Below are positions 9,106 through 50,721 of a stretch of 64,000 nt of DNA, one piece after another; the first letter of the stretch is position 1; each line of letters opens with the position of its first letter. The translations under genes were made by a program, and so were the position numbers. The DNA comes from Pseudovirgaria hyperparasitica (Eukaryota), in NCBI GenBank assembly GCA_010093815.1, contig ML996574.1; one strand, given 5' to 3'. The notes below the pieces were generated by a model. That model was not told where the DNA came from and did no database searches. It saw only the letters and a list, made by a program, of their open reading frames with translations.

Positions 9106-11715
9106 ATGCCAACCAGTTCGATTCGCAATTCCTCGACCTCCACCTCGTCCCCCGTCTCATCTACTCCGCGCTCCTTCCTCTCCCGCCTTGCGCCCTCGTT
9201 TGCCTCCAAGACTCGCTCCTCCGCCGAATTCGATATCCAGCTAGACGATCCACATCGCCAATATGCCCCCGGTGACGCCGTGACAGGGACTGTGACCCTG
9301 AAGGTCTTGAAGCCATTGCGCATAACACATCTGGTCATATCGCTACATGGCTATGTGCAGGTGTACAAAAATCCGAATACCCCGGGGGACGGCTACCGGG
9401 CCCACAACCCGTCGATAGGCTCCGGCAAGGGTCCGAAGAAGGCGGGATACTACGGGAATGGGTTCGCGACCCTGTTTGAGGAAGAGACTGTCCTGTGTGG
9501 CGATGGCAGCATGCAAAAGGGCATCTTCAAGTTCCAATTCTCACTCGACTTTCCCTCCAAAACCTTGCCCAGCAGTATCGATGTAGGTGCTTGTCGCCAT
9601 TTATATTCTGGGAAACTGTGGTTGCTGATGCTTGGCTAGTTCGAACGTGGGACCATATCATACATGCTGACTGCAACCCTCACACGACCAACAAGCATAT
9701 CGCCGACCAGCACGAGGGAGCTGAGGGTATTTCTGATTGAGAACATTGATATTGGGCCCATCAGCGAGCCGAAGCCGCGAAAGATATCCCTGGAACCGCG
9801 AGCTGCCAAGTCGAAACCAAGGCAGCCTAAGAAAAGACCCCCGGCCGCCAAAGCACCAGAGACTGGAGACGCAGCATCCACTTCAAAGGATAGTCGTGTG
9901 GGCGAGTTGAATATTGGTGCGAAAGAAGACCTGGAGTCGCCTCGCAGTCCGGCGGCAAGCGATGTCAGTTTTGAGACCCAGCCAAGCACGACAACAGGCT
10001 CAGGGGAAGATCCTGGCACTTCATCTGGCTCCGGGTGGCAGGGCAGTGGGGAGTTGAAGAGTGCAGGACTGACACCTATCAAGAAGCAACCAATCACTGC
10101 GACAATCACCTTGCTCAAAGCTGGATTCTTGCGCGGCGATACAATACAACTCACAGTGAACGTGACGCACACAAAATATATGAAGAGTCTCCACGGGATA
10201 ATCGTGACGCTCTATCGGCAAGCTCGGGTCGACATGCATCCAGCGCTCCCAGTCATCACTACAAAGGACGGCAAGATGAAGGCTGAAGAATACTTTCCGC
10301 GTTCAAAGACTGGACTTGGTGGCCTGTCATTGTCGAATTCCGGATCAACTCACGTGTTTCGCAAAGACTTGTCGCAGTCGTTTGCGCCCTTGATCATTGA
10401 CCCCAAGACTCTGACTGCTGATGTAAAGGCGTCTGTCCGGGTGCCCGAGGAAGCCTTTCCCTCGATAACGAATGTTCCCGGTGCTATGATCACGTTCAAA
10501 TACTACGTCGAGGTTGTCGTTGATCTACAGGCAAAACTGGCGAGCCTGGGGCGCTTTCTTCCAAACTCGGGAATGATGAATATTCCAAATGGTTACGAGG
10601 ACAATTCTGGTATCCGGCCCGAGGTCAACGGACCTGGCATGTTCTCTGCTTGGGGTGGGAATTTTATTGATACCACCCAGGTCCGGAGAGACAAGAGCGT
10701 CGTGGCCTGTGTGTTTGGGATCATTGTCGGCACAAGGGACAGCGAAAGGAGGAAGAATAAGGGGAAACAGCCCACTGTTCAGCCTCCTGTAGTGGACGGA
10801 CCACAAGCTCAACCTGTTCAGAATGGCAACGGGTATGAGCAGGGAGAGTATCACCACTATGATGAGTCTCAATATTACGACTACGGGCATCCCCCGGACC
10901 GAAACATCGATCATCACGATCACTATTACGGGTTCGAGAATCAGTATGACGGGCACGAGAATCATCAGTATGATGCGCGATATGGTTACTACCCCGAGCA
11001 CCAATACGACATGTCGCATCCTCACGGGTATCGTCTTCCACATCTTGCTGTACAAGACGAGTCCCACCTTACAGACAAGGAGCGGATACGCAGAGCTGAG
11101 CAACGGCTGCTGCCTTCTGAACCGCCAGCGGAAGGTAACGGTGAATCTGCAGCTTGTGCACACGCTCCATCGGCACCGCTTCTGACGGAAGACGAAGACC
11201 TCCTTTTTGCGCCTGCCCCTCGTACAAGGTCGCACGCAAACAGTAATGCCTCCACTATCCCACCTCCCTCTCCCTCGTTTCTCAGCGCAGGTCTATCCGC
11301 TCCACCCGTGCCGTCGGCACCCCTTCCATCACCACGTCCTTTGCGGGCCCCTGCGCCAGTGTATACGTCGTCACCCGCACATGATGAGGCGTCCTCGTCA
11401 CGTGTGCTCGCCGCAGGTCCGGCTGCATCAGACGACAAGCAAGAGCTCCAGCGCCGGCGACTACAAGCCGAGCAGAGCGCTCCCCCGGCTTTCGACCCGA
11501 ACTCGTCCAACGGTCCCGACGCCTCCGCCATGACGGAGGAGGACGAACAGGACGCGATTCCCACTGCACCTGATCTCGCAGACTTGCAGCTCGGGGACGA
11601 TGCGCATGATACCGGACTACCGTATGGCGAAGGAGCATCGTCACACCACGATCCACGGGCTCATGTGCAGACTACTCCGCTGCTGCCTGCCTACAGGGAG
11701 ACACGGGCTTCTTGA
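9106..11715 (+). CDS. palF: pH-response arrestin-like protein PalF/Rim8
   Basis: FDIQLDDPHRQY..GD.V.G, LPSSID|FERGTISYMLTATLTRPT across intron 9583-9639, EEYFPRSKTGLGGLSLS, DDKQELQRRRL, C-terminal LPAY. Confidence 0.93.
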
Positions 11716-12169
11716 CGCGCCAGATTAGCATTCTGATTTCGCACGCATGCATGCATTGTACAGCATTTGGGACAGGGGGCGAGCGGGCGTTTTGTATATT
11801 GATGTACTTGGGGGCGGCAGCATGTGTCTGATGAGCCATGATTGAGAGAATTTGTCAGCGTAGCCTAGCGTGTGCTTTGGAGGGACTTGTTGTGCATCTG
11901 AGATAGATGTATACCTGATTTGGCGTGGTCCATGTAATTGAGTCGTCTTTTGTGAGATTGAGAATGATGATGCATGTAGCATATTGTATAGCATAGTGTA
12001 TAGCGTCGCATATAGCCGCGACAACACGACGACCGAGCCTGAGCTCCGTCGCCGTAGACAGTCGAATGAATATAGAATCTAGGTTCAGTCTAGTAATGCA
12101 CCGCCTATCTCTATCAACCATCATATTCGCTTCGGGAGAACGTGTGATTGTCGGATAGTTAGTCTACTT

Positions 12170-12841
12170 AGTATTAGATAGGTATACGATAGGGCAAGAG
12201 ATGATGATAATAATGATAATGATAATGCCATGGTAGATTATTTATTTTTAGGTGCCCTTATTCTTTCTTACGCATGCCTACCTACTTACCTATCTACCTA
12301 CCTACCTAACTAACTAACTAACTAAGTTTTAAGAGACTATTATAATTATTAAGAAATTTAAGAGCTATAGTAGAAGAGCTTTAGATAAGTAAATAAGGTC
12401 GACCGCGACGCAGTGTATACAAGGACATGAACCCGCGACCGTCCAAGCGTCGCGCATAGTGCCACTGAGGGCAGTGGCGGTCTTTTTTAAAAATCGGGCA
12501 CTTTGTTACGGCTACGGCAGTAGCAAACAACATGTATAATTAATGTAGGCAGTAGCTACGCACCGGTCGGGTGTATATATACAACCGACCGTACACGTAC
12601 ATAGAAAATGGCATGCTTTTATGACCAATATTACAACTTGAACTGTCAAGGAACTTAATAAAGAGCTTTAAGTAGTTTATTAAACTAATAAAAATAGAAA
12701 TTCTAATAGCTAGAAGAGCTTTAAATAAATAATAGCTCTTAGAGATATAGAGATTCTAATAGCTAGAAGAGCTTAAAGTAATTTATTAATCTAATAGCTA
12801 TAGAAGTTTTAATAGCTAGAAGAGCTTTAAATAAGTATTTA
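12170..12841. mobile_element. AT-rich RIP-like repeat relic at the left edge of the island, including a 53-bp tandem array
   Basis: TpA-rich sequence; (ATA)n, (CTAC)n and (CTAA)n runs; AAGAGC core at 12661, 12714, 12767 and 12820 (53-bp period). Confidence 0.7.
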
Positions 12842-13040
12842 TGTTAAGGGTGAACCCTGGGTATTCTTGACGTAGGCGCACCTACGCCTGCGCTATCCCT
12901 GTTCTACTAAGCGAGGCTAAGCGAGCCCCTTCTTACTAGCGCGCACTCCGCCCTTTACCTTAAGGAAGCCGAGTAGACTTCTACTCCCTCCCTTATCGAA
13001 CTTACTATATCCTATAAATACTCTTACGTCTGTGTATACG

Positions 13041-14275
13041 TGCCGCCAAGTTCAATTCAGAAGAGGGACCAGACCTTGCCTTGTAAGCGCATCACACGAT
13101 GGCGAGGGGCGTACCCCTCGCCATTCTAACTCTGGCACAGCTTCGCATTACAAGCCTTGAAGGATGAACGTAATTGTTAGCCGTATCGTCGCAAGTGGGG
13201 CACTTATCTACACTTTATCATCTGCGAGGATCGCGCATTTGTATACGGTGGGCAGTCGGTCGACTTACTACATAGGATCCACGAGCACCATGCGGTACTA
13301 GGCCGTCTATAACTGAAAGGGGATACTGGCCGAGAGCCACACTATGCCAAGTGGAGTGAAGCACAGAGTAAACCTGGATTTACGCATTTCTGGGTCGTCA
13401 TTGCAGTCCAGAAGCTCACAGGATACCACGAAATCGATAGACGCGCCTTGAATGTACTCGAGCATCTAACTATCCTATATGTACAAGGCTACCAACAAAC
13501 ATACCTTGATAAAGACTGGCCAGTTGACATGTCCCGTATCGCGCCATGCGGTCTAAACGTCAAAATCGCCTTAGGGCAGAATCTCTGGCCTACTAATTTT
13601 TCGCATATCCCGAAAGAGGCCGACAACGCAAAGTTTCAAGAATGGAAAAGAAACGCAGCTCAAGGTGGGAAGAGCACCGCAGAGAGGAAACGGCAGGCCA
13701 TTGCAGAAAGGTTCGGATATCACGAACCGGTGAAGCTTGCCGTTAAGTCTGGGCACAACAAGCATACGAAAGTAATGAACCATGCAAGCCTCCGGCTTAT
13801 ATTCTTTACTGCTGAGCATGAAGATCTTGCCAACGAAGAGTTCATTGATGTGTTCTTTGAGACTACAAACCAGGGTGAAGTGCACCCGAATAGCATCGCC
13901 CCAAATGCTATAGTAGGCACGGATATCGCTGCTCGTCTAGCGATAAGACTCCCGGATCGAATCCATGATGACGGCACTACGGAAGCTCGATACATCAAAG
14001 ACAGTAACAGCGGCGAAGCATTTACAAAAACGTGTAATTCTCTCGCAGATATACTGACGGGAGAAGGTGACCCGAGTAAGTATATCGAAGAGAAGGTTCC
14101 ACGTCGCAGGGTCCCGGCAAACAGACTATTACAAGTCGGGGATTCAACCTACACTAACGATGATGGAAATCTTATACCCAAGGTGGTACAGAATAAGAAG
14201 GGCGAAGGTAGAAAGAGAGATAATCTCGTGCTCGCGAGGAAGGAGGAAAAAGAAGCATCTAAGAGTAACACATAG
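13041..14275 (+). pseudogene. GIY-YIG-type endonuclease-domain gene, 5' truncated, two in-frame stops (copy 1)
   Basis: Intron 13083-13140 (GTAAGC...CTAAC...CAG); frame from 13142 reads KWGTYLHFIICEDRAFVYGGQSVDLLHRIHEH...HY...LNVLE...GLNV; stops TAG 13178 and TAA 13310. Confidence 0.72.
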
Positions 14276-14689
14276 ATTGCAATTGAAACGGCTTCATTAT
14301 GGGAAGGCGCGTATGTGTTTATCTAATGAAGATGCTTTTAAGGCTACAGAATCTACAGTATATATGCACTAGTCTAACATTTTCGCCACCTTTCTACTTG
14401 TAACCAATTAATACCTTGTGTACGGGCGACTCGGCCACGACCATCAAGGCATTGTTCGCTATTGTGACGTGCTAGATAATATGATTATCCTATAAGTTAT
14501 ATAAGAAATATCTATCTAGTAATATATCTATTAAGTTAATTAATAGTTCGAAGAAGAGTTGGTCATGAAGCATATTATTTACTATCTAGTCTACGGTTAG
14601 TTATCTTATATTAACCGACCGCCTAGTAGCTATCATCTATATTATATATACAGAGTCCTTGTAGTAATCTCAATCTAGGTCACGACCTT

Positions 14690-16520
14690 CGCGAGCAAAT
14701 AACAGAGCCCCTTCCTTGCAAGCAACTTCGATCCTGAGTATAGGAATGTTGCCGCTCGGTATATTTGGATGTGAACTTCTTCAAAGAGCAAAACCAAGGT
14801 CTTCCAAAGGCTGAGAATGAAGGTCCAGCGACCAGTACGCACCTATTCGAGGTGTTGGACCAGCCTAAGTATGGCTCCGAACTCTTTGTCACCTTACGGT
14901 ATCAGTACGTCTGGGTGGACGGTGATTGGGAATTTGAGACCCGTCACCACGTTCTCCAGCATTCAATTGAGCCGTGACAATATCATTACTGGAGATGATG
15001 GAATTAGCATAGGATACAAAATCGTTGACAATGACAGTTGCGAACAATACACACACATTTATTCCCATCTATACTGGAACTGGTCAGAGCCGAGCAGGCC
15101 CATGCGGAAGAAGTGAGGGAAGATACTATATTCAACTACCAAGCGCCTTCAATACATCTTCTTCAAATCGCCTACAACGGCCACTTTTGCGGATACAATG
15201 TCATGGTTGATCAGGATTTGAGTCCTGAACATGCACAGCTGAAGGCTCTTCTCAGCGGGCCATGCAAGCTTTACATCCTTAATCTCGGGTTCGAGTTGGA
15301 CAAAGAACTCCAGAAGATCGATATGGAGCTTGGCCAACGCTTCAACCCCCTTGATGCTTGGTACCCCAATGGAGAAACGCTTGAGGCTGTAGCAATGCAG
15401 CATACGATTCCCGAAAACAAATGGCCCAAGTATGTACGGGGCCTATAGCCCATCGTGGAACAACAGATTTGCCAACAATACATTTTTATGGGTTTCGGCT
15501 TTGCAGGAGGCTCAGCTGGAAAAACATCAAATCTGAATACGCCGCGGTCCAGCTCTCGATCATCAAACTCTCGGGAGACAGCCACACTTCCTACCTGGGT
15601 ATCTTGTACCCGTCCAAAACCAATCTCCGATACCTACCCAGTGAACATCTCCGTCTGAAGATGAATCCGGACGAGGTATATCCCGAGAATGATTGGGTAT
15701 GTGAGGTTTTGGCAATTCCACCAACATTTGTTCCAGTCGCGGCTGTTGCTATTAAACTTATCCGTCCCCCGAATGAACCCGATATAGATGACTTGGCGCT
15801 GCATGAACTACTCACTATAGATCTGGACCAAGCGCCAAAGACGGTTGACGATGTTTTTGCAACTGTCGAGCGCTCTATCCAGTCTAATGCATCGTTGCAA
15901 AAAGCGTCAATCGAGACCAGAGTAGACGTTAGCGATGGTGTCGGCCAGCAACGCATGCAAAACGGTCCAGAAGTTCACGTTGCGACTTTCACGTTCGAAG
16001 GAAATGTTTTTTTCACGCTAGATCCTGATATCGAGCGTCTTATCCTGGGAAAGGATTCGCATAACCTCCGCCCATGAGACGTCTACGACACGCTGACGGA
16101 AGATAAGCGCCTTCTCGACGAAATGCTTATCAAGGTTCATGGTAAACTAAGCAAAGAGCAAGCAGACGTTCTAACGCAAAGTCTAAAGGTGCCAGCAGGC
16201 CATGTCGTCATCCAGGACTATGTTGGTGCAGGAAAGACATTCCTGTTTCAGATGCTCATGGCTGCCACTCTTGAGATTTCCCGAAAGGTACGGCGCAGCA
16301 GTCCCAGCCCATCCACCGAAGCAACGAGTCCCAAACAGAGCATGGGAAGCAAAAGCAACACCGTATGGTGAGGCGCGAACATCAGCACCTCTACGTTGCA
16401 CCTACCAATGCCTTGGTGGACGACGCCATCAAGTCGACTTACGAGTTCATCGGTTTCCTATCCAGGGGGCACAGAATCAAGCGAGAACCCTGTGTTATCC
16501 GCCTGCTCAACCCTAATTAC
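14690..16520 (+). pseudogene. Upf1/NAM7/DNA2-like SF1 helicase, N-terminal half, with frameshifts and stops
   Basis: LSKEQ (Q motif), VIQDYVGAGKT (Walker A, 16225-16239), LYVAPTNALVD (motif Ia), VIRLL (Ib-like); 5' limit is approximate. Confidence 0.75.
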
Positions 16521-16578
16521 AGATTGCCTTCTTCTTTTACTAACGATCTCTATAATACCAAATGGTATTCCTACTTCA

Positions 16579-17412
16579 CTAAGAGTGTGCTCCGCTTTCC
16601 AATTCCATCTCTGGTGGAAGCGAAAATGGAACGCGATGAATGCCATAACTACAGTCCTCAAGCTGCGCCAGCTCCTTAGGATTATTATAAATACGCGGTA
16701 GAAGTAGCCGGGAGAACGATTTGAACTTTACTTGGTGCTTCACAGCAGCAGCCTCGAATATTGGAGGATAAAATCCAGTACAACCCCAATCGATTAGCCA
16801 AACCTGGTTGCGCGTGTCCAAAATAAGATTTCGAGGGCTAAGATCTCCATGAACGAGGACGAAGTAGGGACACTGTAGTGGTAGAGTATCCGGTAAGGCC
16901 TGCTTAAAATATTTACTTAGGCAGAGTTTCCATTTAATCCACTTCTGGAATATTTCTCTCGTCGGAAACGGTCCTGCGCCATAGTCACTAAACACTATGC
17001 CACAAGATGCTCCTCCACCAATAACGCCTGGATGGTCATTATGTATGGATTGAAGCTGGTTAATCATAGCCGCAACCTGGTCAACCACACTGTCCTGAAG
17101 ACCGGAATTGAGTTCGTCCCAACATGTATCCAGGGAGACACCGTCTATGTAGTCCATGACTATGTAGCCTTCGACTCCAGAATCAGAATATGACGAAGGT
17201 TGATTAATATCAAAGTAACGGTAAACACGAGGTAGTCTCACGTCCGGAAACTTCGTCGTGACATATCTCATCGTCTCGCCTTCTGAGGCTAGAACAGTGG
17301 GCCCAAACTTCATCACCAGCGTTTTAGACAGTCGTACAACTTTCAAACCCCCAAGTGAGTGAAGGACTGGAGCATCTTGGCCATATGCCATGAGTTCCTC
17401 CTTTGGCATCAA
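16579..17412 (-). CDS. Aminoglycoside phosphotransferase (APH)/choline-kinase-like protein
   Basis: Intact 277-aa ORF: VVRLS..LVMK.G, EGETMRYV, IVMDYIDG, HGDLSPRN, IDWG; true start uncertain. Confidence 0.85.
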   Translation of the reverse strand: MMPKEELMAYGQDAPVLHSLGGLKVVRLSKTLVMKFGPTVLASEGETMRYVTTKFPDVRLPRVYRYFDINQPSSYSDSGVEGYIVMDYIDGVSLDTCWDELNSGLQDSVVDQVAAMINQLQSIHNDHPGVIGGGASCGIVFSDYGAGPFPTREIFQKWIKWKLCLSKYFKQALPDTLPLQCPYFVLVHGDLSPRNLILDTRNQVWLIDWGCTGFYPPIFEAAAVKHQVKFKSFSRLLLPRIYNNPKELAQLEDCSYGIHRVPFSLPPEMELESGAHS

Positions 17413-17899
17413 AGCAATATCAAAAGTTGCGCCATCTAGCGGGCATAGAGTCGAACGACTTCGAGCGGCCGGCTATGTTCTTTAGCGTTTTTTTTTTATC
17501 TCAAGCGGTGATCGGGTACTCACATCGACATAGGGAACCCAGGGATCTGGCATTATGCTCGGGCGAGGACTGGACATTGCTCACAGGTATAGAAGTGATA
17601 GGAAACTATGACATGGACCGAATTAAATGGAGGCGTTACTACCCACGAGGCAGCTGGCTAGCGAAGCCTTCGGCCCTTCGCCAGGACTTGACAAGGCTGT
17701 ACACCGAAGTATTAGCGAGCGGCAAAACCGCACAGACCTTGAATCGCCTTCTCGACTACCAGTGCCATGCACTGCGAAGTAGATCTTACGGTATTTCAAA
17801 TATCTGAGATTGCCTAGACGTTACCTCTGCATTTCCTCTGAGGGAATATGAGGCACAGAGATTGCCTGTGCGACGAACCCTCCCCACTTCGATTGGTAG

Positions 17900-18640
17900 A
17901 TACCCAATTAGGTATCTTATACCAGAGTTCCTATAAATTATATATAGCTATCCTATTAGAATAGATAGTAAGTAGGTACTTCTAATAAATATAATAGAAC
18001 AAAAGAATCCTTCGGAAGTACTTAGAAGTACTTAGAAGTGCTATATCTTTTTTAATGTATATTGTCAGGCACGTGGCCTGCTAGTTGATTCTACATGTGT
18101 GCAGCAGTCGTATATAAGCAGTGTGCTCCACCCTTGAAGCAGTAGCTTCAAGATTCGGTCCTTTTGGTGTAGTTGGTTGGTGCGTGGAGCCCGCCTTCTT
18201 ACATATATTATTTATTAGAAGTAGATATATCTATTACAGTTTCTATATATTTATAGTTAGAGTCTATCTATATCTAGCTTAGGCGGTAGTATTATATTCT
18301 ATAGCTTATATATTTAGTAGTAAGGGTAAGATTAAGCATAGACCTATCTTTATTCTATTTATACTTTCTCTAAGTAATTTACTCTATATATATAAGAAGA
18401 TATAGAAAGTTATAGTACTATATATATAGTTCCCTTACTTAGAGTTCTTCTTTTATAATAGTTAGACCTCTCTACTATCTATAGTAGAGGTTAAAGTTAC
18501 TAAGGAGAATATATTATTCTAGTATTATAGTACTCTTAAGTATATTATCTAGTATTATAGTACTCTTAAGTATATTATCTAGTATAAGTAATTACTATTA
18601 GTTATAGATATTATAGATATAAAGAGAATCTATACGTAAG
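17900..18640. mobile_element. AT-rich RIP-like relic with a 30-bp tandem repeat (about 18510-18587)
   Basis: Extreme TpA enrichment; TATATTATCTAGTATTATAGTACTCTTAAG repeated about 2.5 times. Confidence 0.7.
18063..18203 (+). mobile_element. Solo LTR (141 bp) with 5-bp target-site duplication
   Basis: TGTCAG...CTTACA termini, internal TATATAAG, TATAT on both sides (18058-18062 and 18204-18208). Confidence 0.75.
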
Positions 18641-18801
18641 CAGAGATGAAGCGATCTTGTAGCCTTACTAACATGATTCATCGTAGTAGCGATGACCGCT
18701 TCGCCCAACCTATGAATGGTAGTATAGACGTTAGAGTCAGAATCAGGGGAACCAGGAGCGATTTGCGTTTGAAAAGGACGATGTGGCGGAAAATGGAGAG
18801 C

Positions 18802-19578
18802 TTATCCGTAGCTACTACAAGGCATTAGTGATAGATGCGGAATCAACGATTCTAAAAATATACCTTCTAGCTTTATGTCTTGGAGCGCTTCACTGATAGT
18901 CTCATAATCCTGACTCCAACATTTCAGGATCGTATTACGAAGGGCGGGAATAACTGTCACATCCGGGAAGCGGCTTGCCTCGAAATAGGCACTTATTTGG
19001 TCGTCACTCACACTCGCATAAGGCTTCGATCCGGTCATCAACTCATACACCGTAGAGCCAAGGGCGAACAGCTCAGTCTTCGCGGAGATGTCTGTCCCAG
19101 GAAGTTCATGACTAGTCTCATAACAGACAAGCGGTGGGCACCCATCAATCGACGAACCAGCAAAGTCGCCTAGCTTGACGTTCAGATTATGGTCGAGGAA
19201 TACGTTATTACACGAGATGTCGCCATGGAGCACTCCTCTTGAGTGGACATATTGCACAGCATCGAAGATCTGCTCCGCCCATCGAAGCTTCAAGTGAAGC
19301 GGAATCCGCGTCTGTCGTCCGATATATTGCCGGATGGATGTTTCTCGTGCAAATTGTAGGACAATCGCATTGTCCAGCACGCCAAAATAGCGAACGATGC
19401 CTTGATGGTCGTGGCCGAGTCGCTCGTAGACAAGCTTCTCCCGGTCTAAAAAATGCGAATCCCAGGGTTGGCAGAACTTTATGACGGCATCGAGACGTGC
19501 AACGATCGCTGTTGTTCCGGCGCCAACTAAGTCTCCGCCACCGAGACCCCTTGGCCATTGTATATCACACTGTTGCAT
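18802..19578 (-). CDS. Small Ser/Thr protein kinase-like protein
   Basis: VGAGTTAIV, VIKF, REKLVYERLG, HGDISCNNVFLD, KLGDFAGS; a 3' intron after DIKLE is possible. Confidence 0.85.
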   Translation of the reverse strand: MQQCDIQWPRGLGGGDLVGAGTTAIVARLDAVIKFCQPWDSHFLDREKLVYERLGHDHQGIVRYFGVLDNAIVLQFARETSIRQYIGRQTRIPLHLKLRWAEQIFDAVQYVHSRGVLHGDISCNNVFLDHNLNVKLGDFAGSSIDGCPPLVCYETSHELPGTDISAKTELFALGSTVYELMTGSKPYASVSDDQISAYFEASRFPDVTVIPALRNTILKCWSQDYETISEALQDIKLEGIFLESLIPHLSLMPCSSYG

Positions 19579-19891
19579 TTTCTTCCAACAAGGGTTTCAC
19601 GTAAGATGGATAGGTGAAGGAGGATGGTATCGGTAAATTGTGACAGTGTGCTTGTGGGAGGGAGAGGGGTCGCAAGGAGCGGGAAGTACCCTAGAACCCA
19701 ACAATCTTGGCGTTTCCCATTTTACGCGTGTATCCTTACCTTTATACAAGAGACTACATATTAGATTACTTATATGGACTTGTAGAGGATAATAAGATAT
19801 ACTAGATCCTAAATACTTTTTAAGCTATAAAATCTCTCATTTAGTCTTCTTATATCGACCAAGTTCACGGACGCAAGGCAATCACCAAGAC

Positions 19892-20504
19892 TTAAAGGAC
19901 TTGAGAAGCCGTTTCTCTTTCAATCACCAAACTGTTTATCAGTCTGCGATCCTGCGTACCTTTCTTATGCTGACAACATCTTGGTACTGCAAGAACTTTC
20001 TTCCCCGCATAATCCCGTGGGTTCACAGGAAACAGGAGCACTTCGTTCGCGTACGTCTCTCCATCAGCAAATGGACCTTCATCTTCCTCAAGCTCGACAA
20101 TGTTTATTACGAGTACTTCTGGGTCGAGATCGCCGGCAGGAACAAGATGGTCAAACGTCACCCCATAGTAATCGATATACCTGAGCGCCACCGTAGATCA
20201 GCCTCAAGCTCCTGAACAAGGTGCTTCCACCCACTCTAGCGGTTTTACCCAAGCTAGGTACTCGTCTCGTACTATCGCAATATCGTCGGTTGCTCCATAC
20301 AGAGTCTGGTGTGTAAGGTTTGCTAGCGCTAAACCCCCTTGCTGTGGGAAAGGCGTAATTTTTTCCCACGAAGAGCCCGGTAGCAGCTTTTGTATGGATA
20401 CAAGGACCTTGGATCCGGATTCTCAAAGGCTTTGCAGCGGGGGGCGGATGTAACGGGTGTTGAGGATGGTTGACGCAAGGATGGATATAGAGCTGAAGTG
20501 ACAT
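19892..20504 (-). pseudogene. Fungal hypothetical protein with one frameshift
   Basis: MSLQLYIHPC...RIQGP, frameshift near 20405 to LVSIQKLLP...VRDEYLAWV, intron 20234-20181, then YIDYYGVTFDHLVP...GKKVLAVPRCCQ. Confidence 0.6.
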
Positions 20505-20522
20505 TATGTAGTTTAACTCGAC

Positions 20523-20900
20523 AGTCAGGCTATACCCGTACCACGCACTTTAGTAATTGAACAGATCCAAATATACTTAGGAAGGGCGTTTCTATATTTA
20601 CTTTTAGTACTATTTACTACTTCTATTACTATTATCTCTAATCACTAACCTTTTCTTCTATTTTTTAACTTATTAGCTTCTAGTTTAATAGACTTAGTAT
20701 AAGAGGCCGGGCACTACGTACTAACTTGCTTATAAAGGACTGAACCACAGGTGAGCCACGTGCCGAGCACGTGACTTCTTACAAATAGTTAGTCAGTTAG
20801 TCTAGGAGTAATCTACTTTCTATCTATTATATTAATTATTTTCTTAGCGAGTTTCTTATAAGGCTAGAAACTATAGTTATAAGTAGAGAAGGGGAGGGAG
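20523..20900. mobile_element. Degenerate LTR-like relic plus AT-rich RIP-like DNA
   Basis: Minus strand TGTAAGAAG..GGCACGTGGC..TATAAG..GTGCGTGG shares motifs with the 18063 solo LTR; no TSD visible. Confidence 0.45.
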
Positions 20901-21110
20901 AGTTACTATGCTAAAAAGGGGGTGTTCTTATAGAGGGGGAGGAGAGTTGGATTTAGGGGGGCGGAATTCCAGGGAGGCGGATTTCTTATCTATGATCTGT
21001 TTCCTCTATTTCATCTATTTATATATGCTTCTGTACCATGTTACTTATCTATGCTACATAGGTCCTATACAACAGCCAAGCAAAGCAAAACTAAGAGGCA
21101 TTCAAATGGA

Positions 21111-22455
21111 TCAAAGCTCCGCCAGCCCAGCGATCTGCTGCATATCAAACTCCACCACAGCCCCCGCGCACTTCCGCCCATAGTTTAGCACAGAGAGCGA
21201 ATGACGGCCGCGAAAAGCCCCACTGCGCAATAAATGCGACATATTCCCGACAACAACGAGGCCGTACTGCGTGCGCGTCGGCGCAACGATGATCCGGCTG
21301 TGCTCCTTCATGAAGCCTGGCCGGTCGAATGCGACGATGGTGGTGGCCTGGAGGCGCGGGTCTAGACGCTGGAATGTCTTGCTGGCGAGGGCTTTGTGTG
21401 CAGCGTAGGGGCTGATATGCAGGATGTCGGCGGCGCTGATGCCGGTGCTAAAGCCGGCCGTGGTACTGCGGAGGAGGGCTTTGGCAATGGAGAGCTCGAT
21501 GCGGAGGGAGTCGGTGTTGAGCAGGCTTTTGCTAACGAGTGTCGCGGGGGATGTGGCGGCGTTGATGAAGACGACGTTGTGCGGGCTCGGCAGGTTGAAT
21601 ACGTGCTGAAGGAGGGCGACGTAGCATGGGCCGTTGGGGTCCTTGGGAGGGTCACGCCGGCCAGATGCTTTCATGAGGCCGCCGTAGCAGGCTTTACTGA
21701 TGGGTTTCACAATGGCTTCGCAGGAGCGTTCGGAGGTAAGGAGTTGAGAGTATGCGAAACCGCAGTCCATGAGGCGGGCCATCATCGAGTGGGCTGCGTT
21801 TTCGGCGAAGTTTGCGTTGTCGCGCGTTTGCTTGGTTGAGACGCCTGTCTGGTGCTTGTCGCCGACCATGTAGACAAAGGGCTGCCACTGCGGCGTGAAC
21901 TAGTTCGCATAGATGCCCATCTGGTCTACTTCGGAGAGCTTGTACCCTTCATCGAGGAATATCATGACGGGGAAGATTGTTTCGGCAACTTTTGGCGTGT
22001 TCATGACGTACGGTGTGCCGGCGAGGAACTGGGCGCGGCTCTTGATTTCCATGTATAGGAGGGCGCATCTGTGGTTAAACTCTGCCCAGGAGGCAGGTGT
22101 GGCGGTACCAGCTAGGATTTGATTGCGCAAGGCGCAAAGTCTTTCGTGCCTGGTACCGAATTCAGGAGCCTGCCATTCGAATCGGGGTGGTCCATTTGGA
22201 CAAAGTCCAAGGCTTCAAGAGCGATAAAGTCAATGGTATGCTTGATCATCTTGGCCCGGCATTCCATTGTCTTTAAGCCCAAGGGCCCGCTCTGGCTGTC
22301 TTGGAACGCCTTCTCGACCAGATGCCCGCCTTCGCCGAGCAGATAGCGGTACGCCATATCACCGCTAAGTGCAGCCATTGCGAATGAAGCCATTATTGCC
22401 GACCTAGATGCCTTTTGTGCCTCCAGTCTTTTCTCGAATTTCTGAAATAGCTAAT
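21111..22455 (-). pseudogene. Upf1/NAM7-like SF1 helicase, C-terminal half, degenerate
   Basis: AQFLAGTP, IFLDEG (II), VGDKHQT (III), SMMARL, ISKACYGG, ISPYAAH, GFM..SRIIVAPTRTQYGLVVVGN (VI); one frameshift, one stop, motif V partly deleted. Confidence 0.8.
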
Positions 22456-22606
22456 CTATGGCGATAGAATTCCTTGTCCTTCAGCGCCTTGTCCAAACGC
22501 CGCTCGAGATCTACTATAGTTAACTGAGCAGCCTCCACTTCTCTGGAGACAGCATTCAAATTTAATGCAAGTTCCACCTCTCTGCTCGTGATGAGCCTTA
22601 GTTAGA

Positions 22607-23371
22607 TTACGGTCGCTGCCATCGAGTAATAGCTTGATGGCATACCAGTTCAAGGCTGTAAGACTGAGGAAAGATTTGTCTTGCCCGATTCTTCCAGTCT
22701 ACATGTTTCGAAGGTCTGTCGAAAAGTTTGATATATTCCCAGTGCTCAGGATACCAACCGGCATATTCCCAATCAAGCAAGCCTGTAATCTTCCCATTCT
22801 TTACTAAAATATTATGCTGTGAGAGGTCGCAATGTGAAAAAACGATGCGATGATCAGTGCGAAGTTGTTGGTGTAATGCTTCGAGCACGGGACTCGGGGT
22901 CGTCTGAACAAGGTCACAGTAGAATAGGTTAAAGCTTGCTTCGTCCAAAAAAGGTCCTCCGCTATAATCAGAGTATTGACGTAAATCTCGTGCGGATCCG
23001 TCTGAGCAGGATCCAATACGTCTATTAGTCGATGGAGCAGATCGCATTGTCTCAAGGATTTCTCGTAACTGATTACAAATATGATCTTTCTCGCATTCTG
23101 TCATACTCGGCCATACAAGGTCAAGTCTATCGCCATGAATGTACTCCATCCATAAGCTAGTTTCTCCTTCCCCAGAATCTTTCTGTGCATTATATACCTG
23201 GGGAACAGGTAGGTTAATGTGTGCTGCAAATTCGAGAGCATACTTTTCATCTAATTTAAGTCGTCTGCCCTTCTTTAAAACGACAGATCCAGAATAAAGC
23301 GTAACGGTCCGATCTTGTATCGCGTGGAGTATCGAACTCTCTAGAATTGGATTAGATCTGCCACATTCCAT
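22607..23371 (-). CDS. APH/choline-kinase-like protein
   Basis: Intact 254-aa ORF: EKYALEF..LPVPQVY, MEYIHG, FSHCDLSQHNILV, LLDWEYAGWYPEHWEY. Confidence 0.88.
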   Translation of the reverse strand: MECGRSNPILESSILHAIQDRTVTLYSGSVVLKKGRRLKLDEKYALEFAAHINLPVPQVYNAQKDSGEGETSLWMEYIHGDRLDLVWPSMTECEKDHICNQLREILETMRSAPSTNRRIGSCSDGSARDLRQYSDYSGGPFLDEASFNLFYCDLVQTTPSPVLEALHQQLRTDHRIVFSHCDLSQHNILVKNGKITGLLDWEYAGWYPEHWEYIKLFDRPSKHVDWKNRARQIFPQSYSLELVCHQAITRWQRP

Positions 23372-23690
23372 AACATTCCTATGACGGACTCACTTTGTCC
23401 GCCCACAGCATCATGTCCTTCATCCTGTGCTAGCGCTAGCATATCTTCAACTCAAATTTCCAAGTTTGCGCCGAAATGCCAAATGAATTGGTCAAGGTTC
23501 TCAAGTCAGGGTCTCTCAACTGACTACATTGCAATTGGGTGGATACATACGAGGGGAGCTTGATTCGCGGATGACGTGAGACGATTACGTTATCAGCGCC
23601 GCTACACTATTTCAGGCAAAACCACCTCTCTGCAACGTGACCTCTGCAAGTGCAGCCCGGTCAAAATACAAGTCAAATTTTACCACTTCG

Positions 23691-23915
23691 TTATTTGAGA
23701 CTGCAGGCCAGGGTGAAGTGCACCCAAATAGCATCGCCCCGAATGCAATAGTAGGCACGGATATTACTACTCATTTAGCTATAAGAATCCCGGATCGAAT
23801 TAATGATGACGGCACTAATACTATGGAGGCTCGATATATTAAGGATAGTAACCGCGGCGAAGCTTTTACGAAAACATATAATTCCCTCGCGGACGTACTA
23901 ATGAGAGAAGGTACT
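23691..23915 (+). pseudogene. Fragment (copy 3) of the GIY-YIG gene, C-terminal region
   Basis: FETAGQGEVHPNSIAPNAIVGTDI...EARYIKDSNRGEAFTKTYNSLADVL closely matches 13857-14065. Confidence 0.85.
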
Positions 23916-24180
23916 TAGTTATAATGATGGTCGAAGGAAAGATCCGGGAAAGAGCATGCAGTGAGGAAGGAAGCGAGGGGCTCCTGACAACTCCCCATTG
24001 CTACAACGATTTCTATCCAAGTCACCATCCTGGACGAAGCAGTGCTATTCGAATGCAGCAAGATTCCAAACTTCGTTGTATAGGCTCACATGGTATGGCG
24101 CTCAACGTGCATCAAATTGTCCTTCGTCCTATCAACCTATAATCATTACCTGAGAGGTTGGTATATAAATAGACATCGTA

Positions 24181-25130
24181 CGCTTTCTGCGGTCTTCTTC
24201 CCACCATGAGCTGCGTTCTTCTTCCCACCATGAGCTGCGTTCTTCTTCCCACCATGAGCTGCGTTCTTCTTCCCACCGTGAGCTGCGTTCTTCTTCCCAC
24301 CGTGAGCTGCGTTCTTCTTCCCACCGTGAGCTGCGTTCTTCTTCCCACCGTGAGCTGCGTTCTTCTTCCATTCTTGAAACTTGGGGTCGTCGGGCTCTTT
24401 TGGCATGTGCGGGAAATTGGTGGGCCAGATTCTCTGGCCCAAGGCGATTTTGACGTTCAGCCCGCAGGGTGCGATTTCAAAGCTTGTGATGCGAAGCTGT
24501 GCCAGAGTTAGAATGGCGAGGGGTAACACACCATCGTGTGATGCGCTTACAAGGCAAGGTCTGGTCACTCTTCTGAATTGAACTTAGCGGCAATATCCTC
24601 TCTGAAATGCTGTATGATCACATTAGGGTCACATTGACCAGGCAAAATTGACCCGTATCGCTATTGAGCAGGTTGAATTTTGTCATGGCGCTTTTGCATG
24701 CGAGTAAGCATGTACGTATTGACGTCAACTAGCTTAGGTAGCGCTTTGTCTGGCCAAGGCGGGGTACCCAGTGGAATGTGTGGGTTCATGCTTTGATAAT
24801 CGAGAAGGTTGGGATTTGGCTTCACGATACCGTCGATTGATACATCAGCTCTTAACTCTTCGAATGTGTCTTCGTCATCATCGGCATGAATTGCCAGAAG
24901 CTCTGACGTGGTATTTCCGGTTAGGTATTGGTTAACGGTTAGAGAGCTGTTCGTAATCCGATGTTGGTTGATAGTAGAAGACTGGTCGATAGCAAAACCC
25001 GAATTCACATCAGGAGAGCAGGCAGTTGCGGAAAAAGTGGCTGAGTGGAGAGTAGAGGATATATTCGCCGTAGATGTAGCAAAGCTAGACTTGTCTGATT
25101 TCTTGAGCCCTGACCTCGTTCGTCATGGTC
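24181..25130 (-). pseudogene. Fragment (copy 2) of the GIY-YIG gene: N-terminus, same intron, catalytic core deleted
   Basis: AAKFNSEE.PDLAF|FASQALK with intron 24550-24497 matches 13041-13160, then jumps to IAPCGLNVKIALGQ.WPTNF.H.PKE. Confidence 0.8.
24193..24369. repeat. 24-bp minisatellite, 7 full units (KKNAAHGG on the minus strand)
   Basis: TCTTCTTCCCACCRTGAGCTGCGT x7; three A-variant units followed by four G-variant units. Confidence 0.97.
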
Positions 25131-25247
25131 ATCCCCAGAGTTAGGGATTACCCGTCTTTATTCGAAGAAGTGTGAATGATGTATTTGAAGGCATTCAAAT
25201 GTATTGTAAAGTGTGTAGAGAACTAAGTCTGTGAGACTCAGTCGAAG

Positions 25248-26450
25248 CTATTTAACCGTGGGGACACTAGTCCCCTTTAGGAAGTCGTGTCCCTCACTGT
25301 TAAGGGTGAACCCTGGGTATACTATTGGGTCAATGACCCGGAAGTATCCTCCCGGCGGCAACATGTTCCACCCCTCTCCCTCCCCATACCACAATGTGTG
25401 TGGCCAGGCCCCGTCCGCGCCTCCCTCCTCTCCCATCCTTGCGACGTCGAAGGCCTTGAGCGCTATCGACCACACCTTTGTATAGTCCAAGCAACCAGTC
25501 GCCCACTCCTCCACCCTAGATATCTTTCCCTGGTCCTCCATCCCCTCCACCATCGATCTCATCGACGGGAATCTCAACGGCTGATGTGCCCAATGGCACC
25601 AAACCATGTTCGAGTCTTGTGAGAAAAACGCGAACAGGCCAGCTCCATTGGTGAAAACACCATCGGCGAACAGGAAGGTACCGGCGCCGCTGAGTGCGCG
25701 AATCGGCGGAACAATCAGTGGTACTGTTGTGTATGTGACGTGCGTCATGTTGCAGTGCTCTAGGAGCGCAGCACGGAGCTCGGTGTAGGTATGAATGGGA
25801 TCTGGAGCGGTGTAGACTCGGATTGAAGTTTCCCATTCCATCCAGTGTCTGAGCTCAAGGATATTGTCGGATTCCTCGTCCGTCTCCTCCGACTCAGGGG
25901 TGGTAGCCTCCGGAATGGGTAAGGGGCCAGGAACGAAAGGTGCAAACTCAGCTGTGGTGGGCGTTACCGGACGGTTTTCATTTATAGTGAGAGTTGAGAA
26001 GCTAAGCCGGGGTGCCGTGGGAGTATCTGGGGTGTCTGTAGCTTCTTCGGGCTGCGAGACCGGCTGATCTGAGCTCGTGTCTGAGGGCTCTACTCTCTGG
26101 TTTTGGGGTGGATGCTGGGCCCAGATTGTTCTTGCTTCTGCATGTGATATCGCTTGAACTTGTGGGATAGAGTCGAAGTGTGCGCCTGAGGCTTGAAGAA
26201 GAACGAAGAGACGTTGAGCCACCTGTTCAACCTGCATTGCATGCACAAGCCCTGTGGCCCGCAGAAGTGATGCTTGTTGGGTGGCCATATGCCACCGGGT
26301 CTGACGCAAATCAACAGCGTCCACTGCTACACGGGGAAAGGGAGGCGGAAATGATCGAACAGGGGCTCCAGATCTTGAATATCTTGAGGACAAGCCGGTT
26401 AAAGGTACTGCTTGATTGGGAAACTGTCTGAAAGGAAGTTGGCGATCCAT
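25248..26450 (-). CDS. Hypothetical 400-aa protein of unknown function
   Basis: Uninterrupted ORF; Pro/Thr/Glu-rich middle, then a Trp-rich, globular-looking C-terminal half; no recognised motif. Confidence 0.6.
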   Translation of the reverse strand: MDRQLPFRQFPNQAVPLTGLSSRYSRSGAPVRSFPPPFPRVAVDAVDLRQTRWHMATQQASLLRATGLVHAMQVEQVAQRLFVLLQASGAHFDSIPQVQAISHAEARTIWAQHPPQNQRVEPSDTSSDQPVSQPEEATDTPDTPTAPRLSFSTLTINENRPVTPTTAEFAPFVPGPLPIPEATTPESEETDEESDNILELRHWMEWETSIRVYTAPDPIHTYTELRAALLEHCNMTHVTYTTVPLIVPPIRALSGAGTFLFADGVFTNGAGLFAFFSQDSNMVWCHWAHQPLRFPSMRSMVEGMEDQGKISRVEEWATGCLDYTKVWSIALKAFDVARMGEEGGADGAWPHTLWYGEGEGWNMLPPGGYFRVIDPIVYPGFTLNSEGHDFLKGTSVPTVK

Positions 26451-29400
26451 CTTGTGAGAGATTTAGTCGATGAACAACAGTGTCAAAAGTGTTCGAGGTC
26501 TCCGATGGTGATATGTGAGCTTAGAAAGTGATGCAGCTTGCGCGAAGCTAAGAGACGGCCGGAGGATTGCGGTTGCGACGTTTTCGCGGAGGTCAGTGTT
26601 ACGTGAAATCGTTCTCGAGTAAATGTCAATCTAGGAAACCCCCTAGCGGGTCATAGCTCGCAGTTGGAGCTGCATTATATGCGGCTCGTTACTATGCGAC
26701 CCTGAAGGCATAAATCTATTGCGAGATAGTAGCCTGATAGCTACTTTAAGCTTTTCAACTCTTCGACTTCCTCGATTTTCCAGTCGAATTCATCTAAAAG
26801 GGAGGTTCCGACTTTGCGGCTGTGGATGCTAGAAGTCCACTTTGATGGGAAGGGTCTACATGACACGCTTCCTCTCGTCGAAGTAGAAGAATACATACTC
26901 AATTTTCACGAAGAACCGTGGATACCTCGATAACATCTAGGCATGACCTTCTAAATGTGAGTTGTAAGATGATAGCCAATAAGTGTCTCCAACTGATGAA
27001 AATAGAGGAACTGCAAAGGGATTTTGCACAGAGACTAGAATTGTTCAGAGCTACGAGGGACGTCATTGTCATCCAGATGAAAAGAAGAGTGGATAATAAG
27101 CTCAGATAATGAAAGACGAACGTAACAATGAATGAAAAAGACCCTACAAAGAAATGTTCAAGACCAGTGGATCTGCGAATATATTCTCCAAGCAGATATC
27201 CCCCAGCCGGAACAACAGTCTTTACCTGCTCACAAGGATAGGCATTGCGAGGGAAGTCAGGAGCAGAAAGACAATATCGTTATGAAACACAGGTGAGACT
27301 CGATTCAAGAAAGAAAGGGAAGGCCATTACCAACAGCAGCAAAGTCGACCCGATCTTATCCCAGAAAAAGAATGAAGATATATCTCAGTTCGAAGTACAT
27401 ACAGGCGAAGAGAACACTAGGCATATTTGTACTAGCAATAAGGTACAAGTCGCGCTTTCTATAGCAATAAATCCTCGCACGAAACTGAACTAAGAAATCG
27501 AAGACGAGGTTTACTTACGTGGCGACCGTATTCCTCCCAAGGCACGAAAGAAGATGACCGAGGCCATGGTTTTAGCCAAGAGCTAAGAAGGAGAACAGTA
27601 CGACTTTATGTTCAGCGTCACTGTAGGATGAGATAGCTGAACGATTTGAATACCCAATATGAGTCACTGCTGTCACTCGCACAGCCTACTGTCATACGCG
27701 AATATTGCGTTGCGCTGAGCTGGACTCATGCATACAAACGCAACGTTAGGGAATTATAAAACGGGGACGAACGTATCAGAAGAAGGAAATATGGGTATGT
27801 TGCGCTTGATAAATTACGAATCCCGCCCTTCAATTCGACGGGCCCGTACTCAAAGATCGTCGCGGTCGCTCTTGTCTCTTACGATCCTGGCCGCAAACGG
27901 ACAGGTGCATCCAGCTCGAAGTCAACGCATGGAAGCAGGAGACTGAGCGAGGCATGAGACTGCAATTAGTACTTCTCCCAAGATAGAGATATACAAGAAG
28001 TGATGTTTCAAGTAAGGTGCTTGTAGGCTGCGAGCTCGAATGAACATATTTAGGTGCTTGTCACCTCACGAAGTAGAGTTGTTTGCTCTAGAGTTTATGA
28101 GGCAGTCGATACACATATGGTACGTCTGAACATAGTAATATGAATAATTGACACTTATATCGTGATCTAGTGTGTAAACAAAGGAAAGCATGAAGCTGTT
28201 AATCGCGACAAGAGATTTCCATTACAGTGGAGAATTTGAGGCTGAGTCATAACCACGTGATACCGCAATTTACAACGTCCAGAATGCCTCAGGCACTCAA
28301 ACACAAACATTTTATGACCAATGTCCGACAACTGTCCTCTTCTCCTCAATGAGCAGGCAACCCCCTTGCAACGTTTAGGATCGCTCAGCCATCATATCGA
28401 CCTGACTCGTCGAGCCGAGTCCATGACTCGTGACGTCGCTGCCTCGTGGACGATTCCTCAGCATACTTAAGCTACGATCGTCTTACATAGGCAAGCAAAT
28501 GGACCCGGAGCAATAATATAACGAGCGATGTGTAAATTTAGTGCTGAGATGATGCATCATGCATACACACCTAGACAATACGACGCTCAAAGTACCCTGC
28601 AAACTCGGATTTCTGGAGAGCAAAATGATCTAAATATGTATGCCTGCATTCTTCAAATATACAGAGCATTCGAGAGGCGTGTTCTAGTTTCTTCCAAGAC
28701 CATGAAGCGCTCATGCCAACGAAGGTATTATCTTTAGCAGCAGGGGTCCAATTGTGGCGCCATAGTGATTAGGCTATTAGCATAGAATGTATCTTGATCA
28801 TCGTTGTCGTTGAATGGCCTTAGGAGTGAGCGCTAGGTGACCCGATACTGGCTAGAAGCAACGAGATAGTGTCCAGTGTTATCATAAACCGCATCGAAAA
28901 CTAGAAAGTAAGCAGTTGTGGGAGATGACAACGACGGAAGTGCATTGGGAAAGAATTGATAGTCCATCAGATCTTACTCTGTTTGGTTATAGATGCGGCG
29001 GAGCTAGGCTTGACCAAGGTTCCGTAAATTAGTTTCATGGAAGCTAGGCCTCGAGACGACCTAGAAGCCCTATCGCAACTAGTGAGACAGAAGATTATAC
29101 ACTTATTGTCGTTGTAGTGAAGAAGAGAAGATGTTTCTATACAATGACTAGATTGTGGTTAGAGTTCGGTGTGTTAGGAACAAGTATAGACATGCTAAGC
29201 GTTCACTCATGTAGATTTGGCATAAGAAAAGATGAATACATTTTCTTCGAGAATTCTAGTTCTATAGTGTCCTATTTTCCAATCTGTCCAGATCCTTTGC
29301 AGCTTCCGACCTATACCAGAAAATATCCATGTATGATGTCCCTGTCAATCCGAATACATCCCTAACGGCATTTCTTAGCGTGCTGACAGGAAGTTCCATC

Positions 29401-29866
29401 TGAATGATCCCTTGCTTGAGACTTCTGGGCTCCATGGCAGGATCGTGAGCTGGGCGGTGACGTTGCCTATTGGGCACGGACTTCCGTAAAGTGAACAGAG
29501 AGTGACGCACACGCACCGATGGCTGCCTGGCACTCAGAAAAGCAGCTAGGCAACAGGGAGAAACCTTGTTCCTGATGATGGAAGCGAAGTGAAGGATCCG
29601 TGCCAGCATTTGGACAGCCACGGAGACGATGGTTGAAGCCAAACACTCCTTTAGCAATATAGGTGTAGGTGCAAGCCTAACGAGAGCATACCAGCAATAG
29701 GTACGATGAGGAACATGACCGATGGCAGAGCGTGTGTCGCATAGAGGACTGAACCTTAGAGGGTGTGGAAGGAATGATACGCTTGCTACGCTTGAAACTT
29801 ATGTTCGCTTTGTCTTCGGCGACGACGTCGCTCAGGCTCATCGCCATGCTATATGTGATGTCAACG

Positions 29867-50414: not shown

Positions 50415-50721
50415 GAACCATGAAACCGGCACTGCTTGACGTCAAAGTGGAGCATACAACAAGCACAGGAAAACAATGCATTACGCGAGCCTCCGGCTTG
50501 TATTCTCTGCTATTAAGCACGATCATCTCACGAGTGAAGAATTCATCGACGTGCTATTTGAAACAGCAGACAAGGGTGGTGATTCAACATACACCGACGA
50601 CGCGGGCAACTTGATTCTAAAGGTCGCCCAGGAGTCAGAGGATGAGGGGAGAAAGCGGGATAACGATGTACTTGCAATGAACTTTGCGCGAGAACGCTGC
50701 ACTCGCGAAAGAAGGAGGTGA
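50415..50721 (+). pseudogene. Fragment (copy 4) of the GIY-YIG gene, C-terminal region with an internal in-frame deletion
   Basis: ASLRLVF...EEFIDVLFET|GDSTYTDDAGNLI.KV....EGRKRDN matches about 13720-13875 and 14138-14240. Confidence 0.8.

Follow-up and report, generated by a model that had tools for sequence, protein, structure and literature searches.

Pairs of a nuclease and an Upf1-like helicase are a recurring theme of immunity against mobile nucleic acids, both in bacteria and in animals. In the bacterial anti-phage system Mokosh type I (bioRxiv 10.1101/2022.05.11.491447), the protein MkoA combines a Ser/Thr kinase with a COG1112/Upf1-like helicase and MkoB is a PLD nuclease; the animal pair MOV10L1 and PLD6 (bioRxiv 10.1101/2022.12.12.520048) echoes this helicase-nuclease logic. 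A fungal counterpart combining a nuclease with an Upf1-like helicase did not turn up in our literature searches, and those on GIY-YIG proteins in connection with fungal helicases or transposons, Starships and Pezizomycotina yielded only mitochondrial homing endonucleases and Penelope-like elements (including PMC4522978). Here we describe a block of genes in the fungus Pseudovirgaria hyperparasitica (contig ML996574.1 of assembly GCA_010093815.1), situated between a PalF-like and a GCD1-like gene in a stretch of 64,000 nucleotides that was analysed as a whole and is called the window below. The block holds the remains of a GIY-YIG-like nuclease gene and of an Upf1-like superfamily 1 (SF1) helicase gene, together with three kinase genes. 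Based on the evidence presented here, we consider, with a probability of roughly 55%, that this block is an accessory gene cluster which was locally duplicated, inverted and partly mutated by repeat-induced point mutation (RIP). Best read, it is not a mobile element now, nor is it shown to be a cassette, which is what an initial annotation, made from the sequence alone, had offered as a possibility for positions 12170-29000.

Four runs of the same organism were compared with the window: X1 and X2, which are possibly the source DNA, and X3 and X4, from a second sample whose kind is unrecorded. Contigs were compared over positions 10500-30499, where those of X3 and X4 mostly show an identity of 99% or more. 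The X3 and X4 contigs skip six stretches of 49-58 nucleotides (nt), each with GT..AG ends on the minus strand (17473-17523, 18815-18863, 20179-20232, 20592-20649, 23341-23393 and 24497-24550), and, because of these intron-like joints, we read X3 and X4 as transcript assemblies. The features on which the argument depends are given below (coordinates in the window, strand, description; lengths of proteins in amino acids, aa).

12001-13000, no strand: AT-rich RIP-like patch, with a 53-nt tandem repeat at 12661-12834 (3.3 copies) and a CCTA microsatellite at 12277-12324
13041-14275, plus: GIY-YIG-like nuclease gene, copy 1 (pseudogene); 5' block 13041-13161 common with copy 2, motif region 13199-13288, TAA at 13310-13312, frame to the stop at 14273-14275
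14415-14528, plus: Ser/Thr kinase gene fragment of 114 nt, an inverted duplicate of 19321-19434, with 4 stops in 38 codons
14775-16676, plus: N half of the Upf1-like SF1 helicase (pseudogene), carrying Walker A (GAGKT, 16225-16239) and motif Ia (16398-16421)
16582-17647, minus: APH-like kinase 1; Pfam APH 53.9 bits, intron 17473-17523 (GT..AG) joined in X3 and X4, spliced frame intact, 315 aa
17837-18640, no strand: AT-rich RIP-like patch surrounding a core of ~140 nt (18063-18201), a high-copy dispersed repeat
18556-19646, minus: Ser/Thr protein kinase, TKL-like; PK_Tyr_Ser-Thr 68.5 bits, Pkinase 64.9 bits, intron 18815-18863, spliced frame intact, 283 aa
21114-22598, minus: C half of the Upf1-like SF1 helicase (pseudogene), carrying motif II (21942-21959), motif III (21849-21866), AAA_12 and a coiled-coil-like stretch
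22610-23450, minus: APH-like kinase 2; Pfam APH 63.3 bits, intron 23341-23393, spliced frame intact, 260 aa
23674-23944, plus: C-terminal fragment of GIY-YIG-like copy 2; 82% identity with 13852-14068, orientation opposite to that of the N-terminal fragment of this copy
24146-24641, minus: N-terminal fragment of GIY-YIG-like copy 2; 13041-13161 (91%) and 13538-13686 (81%) of copy 1 are present, intron 24497-24550 spliced in X3 and X4
50424-50718, plus: GIY-YIG-like copy 3, fragment; matches 13725-13877 and 14138-14241 of copy 1, without 13878-14137

The helicase is present as two pieces on opposite strands and the two are complementary: Walker A and motif Ia lie in the N half, motifs II and III and the AAA_12 region in the C half, a tblastx comparison between the halves gave no similarity, and no motif occurs in both. 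Walker A (plus strand) and motif II (minus strand) are thus not found in one frame, as they would be in a RecA1 domain. The N half has open reading frames (ORFs) in three frames; it shifts frame at least three times, is interrupted by a TGA (16075-16077), and its Pfam matches are under the cut-offs (AAA_30, E 2e-4, 21.4 bits; AAA_11, E 0.05, 13.8 bits); the final ~95 nt of its open frame overlap the gene of APH-like kinase 1 on the opposite strand. The C half is interrupted by a TAG at 21900-21902 and by two frame changes (22450-22115 is in a different frame); it matches AAA_12 of Pfam with 43.6 bits against a cut-off of 27 (E 3e-11), and the Atlas model of the C-terminal ORF resembles AAA_12 clusters with template modelling scores of 0.76-0.79. 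The initial annotation had placed an SF1 helicase behind the nuclease gene in the same orientation, which is right for the N half but not for the C half, since the latter runs on the other strand (22598-21114). None of the helicase pieces has a phmmer match to any solved helicase in the PDB, a word-index search of the C-terminal ORF against longer proteins found none, and the N-terminal region of ~480 aa has neither a Pfam family nor a PDB sequence match. A metagenome scan with the helicase ORF returned three loci (L001-L003), which proved to encode bacterial serine recombinases, relaxases and ParB, and were dropped as false matches. Both helicase junctions are crossed by Logan DNA contigs (13067-17297 and 18571-24221) that may stem from the same sample as the window assembly. 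One contig each in X3 and X4 covers 20990-23340, that is, the C half and on into kinase 2; positions 14502-15835 in the N half are without X3 or X4 contig cover and were not used as evidence.

The nuclease gene occurs in three copies, all of them defective: copy 1 has an in-frame TAA, copy 2 has had its core deleted and copy 3 carries an internal deletion. In copy 1, one reading frame extends from 13181 to the stop at 14273-14275 with that single TAA in between, and the pattern G-x-Y ... Y-G-G-Q ... R-x-x-x-H can be read as GTYLH (13199-13213), VYGGQ (13241-13255) and HRIHEH (13271-13288). The Pfam GIY-YIG (PF01541) match is weak, with E 0.0057 and 17.4 bits for the first 43 residues (ORF 13181-13309), below the gathering score of 22.6, and the read-through protein P0002 reaches 14.3 bits against the same cut-off. 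The GIY-YIG-type gene of the initial annotation is therefore present at 13181-14275 (plus strand), but interrupted by a stop and with a domain match under the gathering score. One X4 contig (12977-14431) covers copy 1 unspliced.

An HMMER search of 1.84 billion representatives with the nuclease returned four proteins in total. Three of them (P0001, P0003 and P0004), which are the nuclease-family database proteins from this organism, are all encoded in this window; the fourth, P0005, comes from Lophiostoma macrostomum and is a hypothetical protein of 460 aa with the UniRef name GIY-YIG domain protein. It is 28% identical to copy 1 over ~320 residues that begin in the motif region and continue through to the C terminus (E 3.5e-5 library-wide), and has the motif pattern in common with it; the downstream Glu was assigned provisionally, by eye and from an alignment of two sequences. 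P0005 itself has no Pfam GIY-YIG match at E 0.1, and its AlphaFold model, built from a two-row alignment, is unusable (predicted local distance difference test score, pLDDT, 32). For the C-terminal ~250 aa of the nuclease no known family was found. In word-index protein searches the nuclease ORF and P0005 each matched only themselves, and the nuclease alignment gave no match among PDB sequences and no relative among metagenome, viral and prokaryote-genome contigs. Altogether a single distant relative was found, and the family is essentially uncharacterised.

Copy 2 lacks 376 nt (13162-13537 of copy 1) that make up the GIY-YIG core, and this deletion is in-frame; a tandem repeat at 24187-24369 (24-nt unit, 7.6 copies, 98% identity) encodes an eight-residue repeat in P0003, a motif that occurs once in copy 1. 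In copy 1, the 19 nt between the upstream exon frame and the frame of the GIY-YIG core (13162-13180) start exactly where the deletion of copy 2 starts. Copy 3 is followed immediately by a gene for a class II hydrophobin (Pfam Hydrophobin_2, E 3e-19; region 50424-51480, plus strand), and the gene model P0004 fuses both. Transition to transversion counts between the nuclease copies are 4:3, 13:13, 28:13, 26:8 and 16:16, and this mixture means that the copies are either old or not mainly diverged by RIP.

The three kinase genes, in turn, look alive. As initially annotated, two are APH-like and one is a Ser/Thr kinase, and even the unspliced ORFs (16582-17472 and 22610-23389 for the APH-like kinases, 18805-19596 for the Ser/Thr kinase, all on the minus strand) are above the Pfam gathering scores. 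Both APH-like kinases belong with the APH/choline-kinase-like family (PF01636), having profile scores over the cut-off of 23.2 together with the H-x-D-x-x-x-x-N and D-W motifs (HGDLSPRN at 16828-16851 and IDWG at 16783-16794 in kinase 1; HCDLSQHN at 22811-22834 and LDWE at 22766-22777 in kinase 2); the two are 24% identical. The Ser/Thr kinase qualifies as a eukaryotic protein kinase (PF00069/PF07714), with VIKF at 19474-19485, HGDISCNN at 19204-19227 and GDFAG at 19156-19170 (where DFG reads DFA), and its best PDB matches are EGFR, GCN2 and RAF. The initial description of the island as decaying thus applies to the nuclease family and the helicase, with their stops, frameshifts, internal deletions and inversions, but not to the three kinases, whose spliced frames are intact. 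The small Ser/Thr kinase gene fragment is located in the gap that separates the nuclease gene from the helicase N half, and 17 of its 21 mismatches with the parent gene are T or A in the fragment where the gene has C or G.

RIP indices are positive at 12.0-13.0, 18.0-19.0 and 20.5-21.0 kb, in agreement with the RIP-like patches noted initially. The ~140-nt core at 18063-18201 has a word depth of ~24,000 in its bin and of up to ~86,000 at 18129, against a baseline of ~300 (up to ~290x single-copy). This core is not RIP-like, contains the stretch TATATAAG, and at either end of it the contigs are interrupted in all three runs. For the LTR relics of the initial annotation, the analysis gives no more than this dispersed repeat. 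The 53-nt repeat that precedes nuclease copy 1 has a counterpart in the AT-rich stretch 49499-49635 (67-77% identity), which precedes copy 3 by a similar distance. Over all genes, the word depth of the X1 DNA is 297-331, that is, single-copy, with spikes only at the AT-rich repeats.

No gene for mobility was recognised. Transposase, reverse transcriptase, Rep, integrase, tyrosine recombinase and DUF3435 are absent from all 111 ORFs scanned between 11.8 and 29.9 kb (22 plus a further 89 of at least 62 aa) and from the 65 scanned in the rest of the window (out of 75 of at least 110 aa), 176 ORFs in total; six stop-read-through frames of 17800-18803 contain no Pfam domain either. The earlier statement that transposase, reverse transcriptase, Rep and DUF3435 are missing is borne out for these ORFs and frames, and a search for inverted repeats detected only the gene copies themselves.

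According to the reading we prefer, the nuclease gene would have been partly copied nearby at least twice, and a single Upf1-like helicase gene would have been cut between motifs Ia and II by an inversion of ~6 kb, with breakpoints at ~16.55-16.68 and ~22.60 kb; the helicase would then have decayed further through frameshifts and stops (at least five frame changes and two stops in total). A second small inversion, at ~23.6-24.15 kb, would account for the split copy 2, and the rearrangements may go back to breaks that were repaired in the neighbourhood of inserted repeats and of duplicates mutated by RIP. We also considered whether the helicase was split by recombination of one nuclease copy with another, or of the kinase fragment with the gene that it derives from, and rejected both because the geometry is wrong for either. 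Several points weigh against the preferred account. The complementarity of the helicase halves rests on motif order and not on an alignment, since no full-length helicase relative was found; the G+C content of the halves differs (0.46-0.51 in the N half, 0.53-0.58 in the C half); and the right breakpoint of the inversion would lie at most ~10 nt from the stop of kinase 2 and the left one near the stop of kinase 1, which is an odd coincidence. The runs X3 and X4 are labelled '?' and not RNA, so that their RNA nature is deduced from the intron-like joints; no RNA run is listed as carrying the stretch. Single-copy depth rules out only copies that are at least ~90% identical, and the library of representatives is collapsed at 50% identity, so that close paralogues could hide inside its clusters. 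Finally, a nuclease gene and a helicase gene that point the same way at a distance of 430-500 nt, with three kinase genes in the same 11 kb, could mean a functional grouping.

The G+C difference would also suit an origin of the helicase halves from two different, independently truncated genes, for example as the two arms left by an old inverted duplication that comprised both nuclease and helicase, and nuclease copies 1 and 2 do face each other as inverted repeats bracketing 13.0-24.6 kb, with a helicase half downstream of each. We hold this to be very improbable: the halves neither overlap nor repeat any motif, independent truncations would need matching end points, and the similarity of the arms stops inside the nuclease gene (at 14068 in copy 1 and 23912 in copy 2). 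As the duplication reaches neither helicase half, a large inverted duplication with two helicase copies was ruled out. It is likewise doubtful, to a slightly lesser degree, that the block is the remnant of an unclassified mobile element using the GIY-YIG nuclease, perhaps together with the helicase, in which the three copies would be old insertions and copy 2 a non-autonomous derivative. The three copies lie within 38 kb, one of them (at 50.4 kb) beyond several core genes, and similar AT-rich repeats precede copies 1 and 3 by ~0.9-1.0 kb; the core deletion of copy 2 is internal and in-frame, as noted above, and conservation is higher in the 121-nt 5' block (91%, reaching 96-97% in sub-blocks) than in the remainder (81-82%). 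Against this reading, that block contains the intron spliced in copy 2, but the intron by itself would account for the conservation of the block poorly if at all. Additionally, terminal repeats and target-site duplications were not found (the inverted repeats are gene copies), the word depth is single-copy, the protein library holds no family member from this organism outside the window, the family is nearly absent from the 1.84 billion representatives, and no reverse transcriptase accompanies the nuclease, unlike in Penelope-like elements.

The idea that the block is what remains of a conflict or defence module of two genes, nuclease and helicase, directed against foreign or selfish nucleic acid and regulated by at least one of the neighbouring kinases, with effectors now dead and kinases surviving, appears unlikely to us, though not so much as the alternatives just discussed. 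In its favour, the nuclease gene is separated by ~500 nt from the helicase N half, which has the same orientation, and a kinase fragment lies between them; moreover, kinase, Upf1-like helicase and nuclease form the domain set of Mokosh type I (bioRxiv 10.1101/2022.05.11.491447). PADLOC models of MkoA hit the Ser/Thr kinase with E 5e-12 and give a weak hit (E 0.004-0.009) at the C end of the helicase, but these matches are at the level of shared domains, the Ser/Thr kinase matching 33 PADLOC families. Furthermore, the nuclease is GIY-YIG-like and not PLD, a second instance of the pairing was not found (in the HMMER library or among metagenome, viral and prokaryote contigs), the order that would have preceded the inversion puts the kinases downstream of the helicase as separate genes, the two APH-like kinases share little of their sequence, and effector genes would be dead while their supposed regulators are kept. 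That the GIY-YIG-like gene and the Upf1-like helicase were once a working two-gene unit new to fungi, either as a kinase-controlled immune or conflict module or as the core of a GIY-YIG selfish element, is about as doubtful as the mobile-element remnant. The reading as a duplicated, inverted and partly RIP-mutated accessory cluster remains the one we prefer.

The surroundings of the block are those of fungal chromosomal DNA. The Pfam scan places an arrestin-domain (PalF-like) ORF, ending at 11715 on the plus strand, on the left, and an eIF2B-gamma-like (GCD1-like) ORF at 29867-31402 on the minus strand on the right, as had been claimed for palF and GCD1; the two genes converge, their 3' ends facing the interval. 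Elsewhere the window has ordinary genes: an SNF2/RING helicase, an MFS transporter, an Arf GTPase, a C2H2 factor, a pectate lyase, DUF3431, GH12, ATG27, EST1 and PfkB. The first of these is an uninterrupted ORF of 1452 aa at 2166-6521 (plus strand) with SNF2, RING and Helicase_C domains (Rad5/Rad16-like), an ordinary core gene. Between the flanking genes, three further features were identified, and a tRNA scan of the island found none.

19838-20800, minus: transcript from which two introns (20179-20232 and 20592-20649) are spliced; its neighbours are the helicase C half and the Ser/Thr kinase gene
24664-26462, minus: two orphan ORFs of 153 aa and 404 aa, no family found, covered by one X4 contig (24551-28176)
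27795-27962, minus: H/ACA small nucleolar RNA (snoRNA) snR36; full-length match to Rfam RF01242 (model positions 1-180 of 180) with 51.4 bits, gathering score 43, E 3.5e-7

The transcript at 19838-20800 has no ORF longer than 99 aa and no Pfam match. snR36 is a conserved core gene lying within the span initially proposed for the island, so that the right boundary had been set too far and the right third of that span is probably core DNA. The 404-aa orphan ORF (25251-26462, minus strand) is in a transcribed stretch downstream of snR36; no relatives and no usable Atlas match were found for it, and its Atlas model has a pLDDT of 0.33. A single 3.6-kb X4 contig (24551-28176) holds both this ORF and snR36, and this stretch may be a snoRNA precursor or host transcript. 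The initial annotation had described an orphan ORF directly upstream of a second nuclease copy; the ORF is indeed upstream of copy 2, but that copy is only a fragment, without the GIY-YIG core and split across two strands.

As it stands, the block is an ordinary feature of a Pezizomycotina chromosome, an accessory cluster of small size on which duplication, inversion and RIP have left their mark, and it offers worked examples of a helicase gene that was apparently cut in two by an inversion and of a nuclease family dying in place beside intact kinases. It would matter more if the nuclease-helicase pairing recurred in other fungi. If the two genes did once form a unit, the window would contain its decayed last copies, and the scarcity of relatives would point to a rare, fast-evolving and lineage-restricted system.

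The block can be compared with several known systems. Like RIP-affected segmental duplications of Pezizomycotina, it has AT-rich patches with positive indices and a kinase fragment with a one-sided C/G-to-T/A bias; unlike in these, the nuclease copies differ by mixed transitions and transversions. With Starships and Helitrons of Pezizomycotina it shares the character of an accessory block with a helicase and kinases in a fungal chromosome. However, a Starship would have a DUF3435 captain, which is absent from the 176 window ORFs, and the block is only ~12-15 kb long between core genes, whereas a Helitron would have a Rep (Helitron_like_N) fused to a Pif1-type helicase, neither of which is among the scanned ORFs, the helicase here being of AAA_12 type. 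A Penelope-like element would have a reverse transcriptase ahead of the GIY-YIG domain, and the island ORFs have no RVT match. The nuclease resembles the GIY-YIG superfamily in the motif pattern that can be read at 13199-13288 and in its full-length similarity to P0005; on the other hand, it scores below the Pfam gathering score, and it is not a mitochondrial-intron homing endonuclease. The helicase resembles eukaryotic Upf1-like (DNA2/NAM7, AAA_11/AAA_12) SF1 helicases, with AAA_12 above the gathering score and motifs I, Ia, II and III readable, but the gene is split and frameshifted here and its N-terminal region has no family.

As in Mokosh type I, finally, a kinase, an Upf1-like SF1 helicase and a nuclease are encoded side by side. 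The bacterial system has a PLD nuclease and a kinase fused to the helicase, whereas the nuclease here is GIY-YIG-like (a PLD domain has no Pfam match in the island ORFs), the genes are separate, and nuclease and helicase are dead; PADLOC gave only generic kinase and helicase domain matches. The resemblance to Mokosh is only one of analogy and not of membership, and, should the reading as a two-gene immune module be true, the block would represent a eukaryotic counterpart, in logic, to Mokosh.

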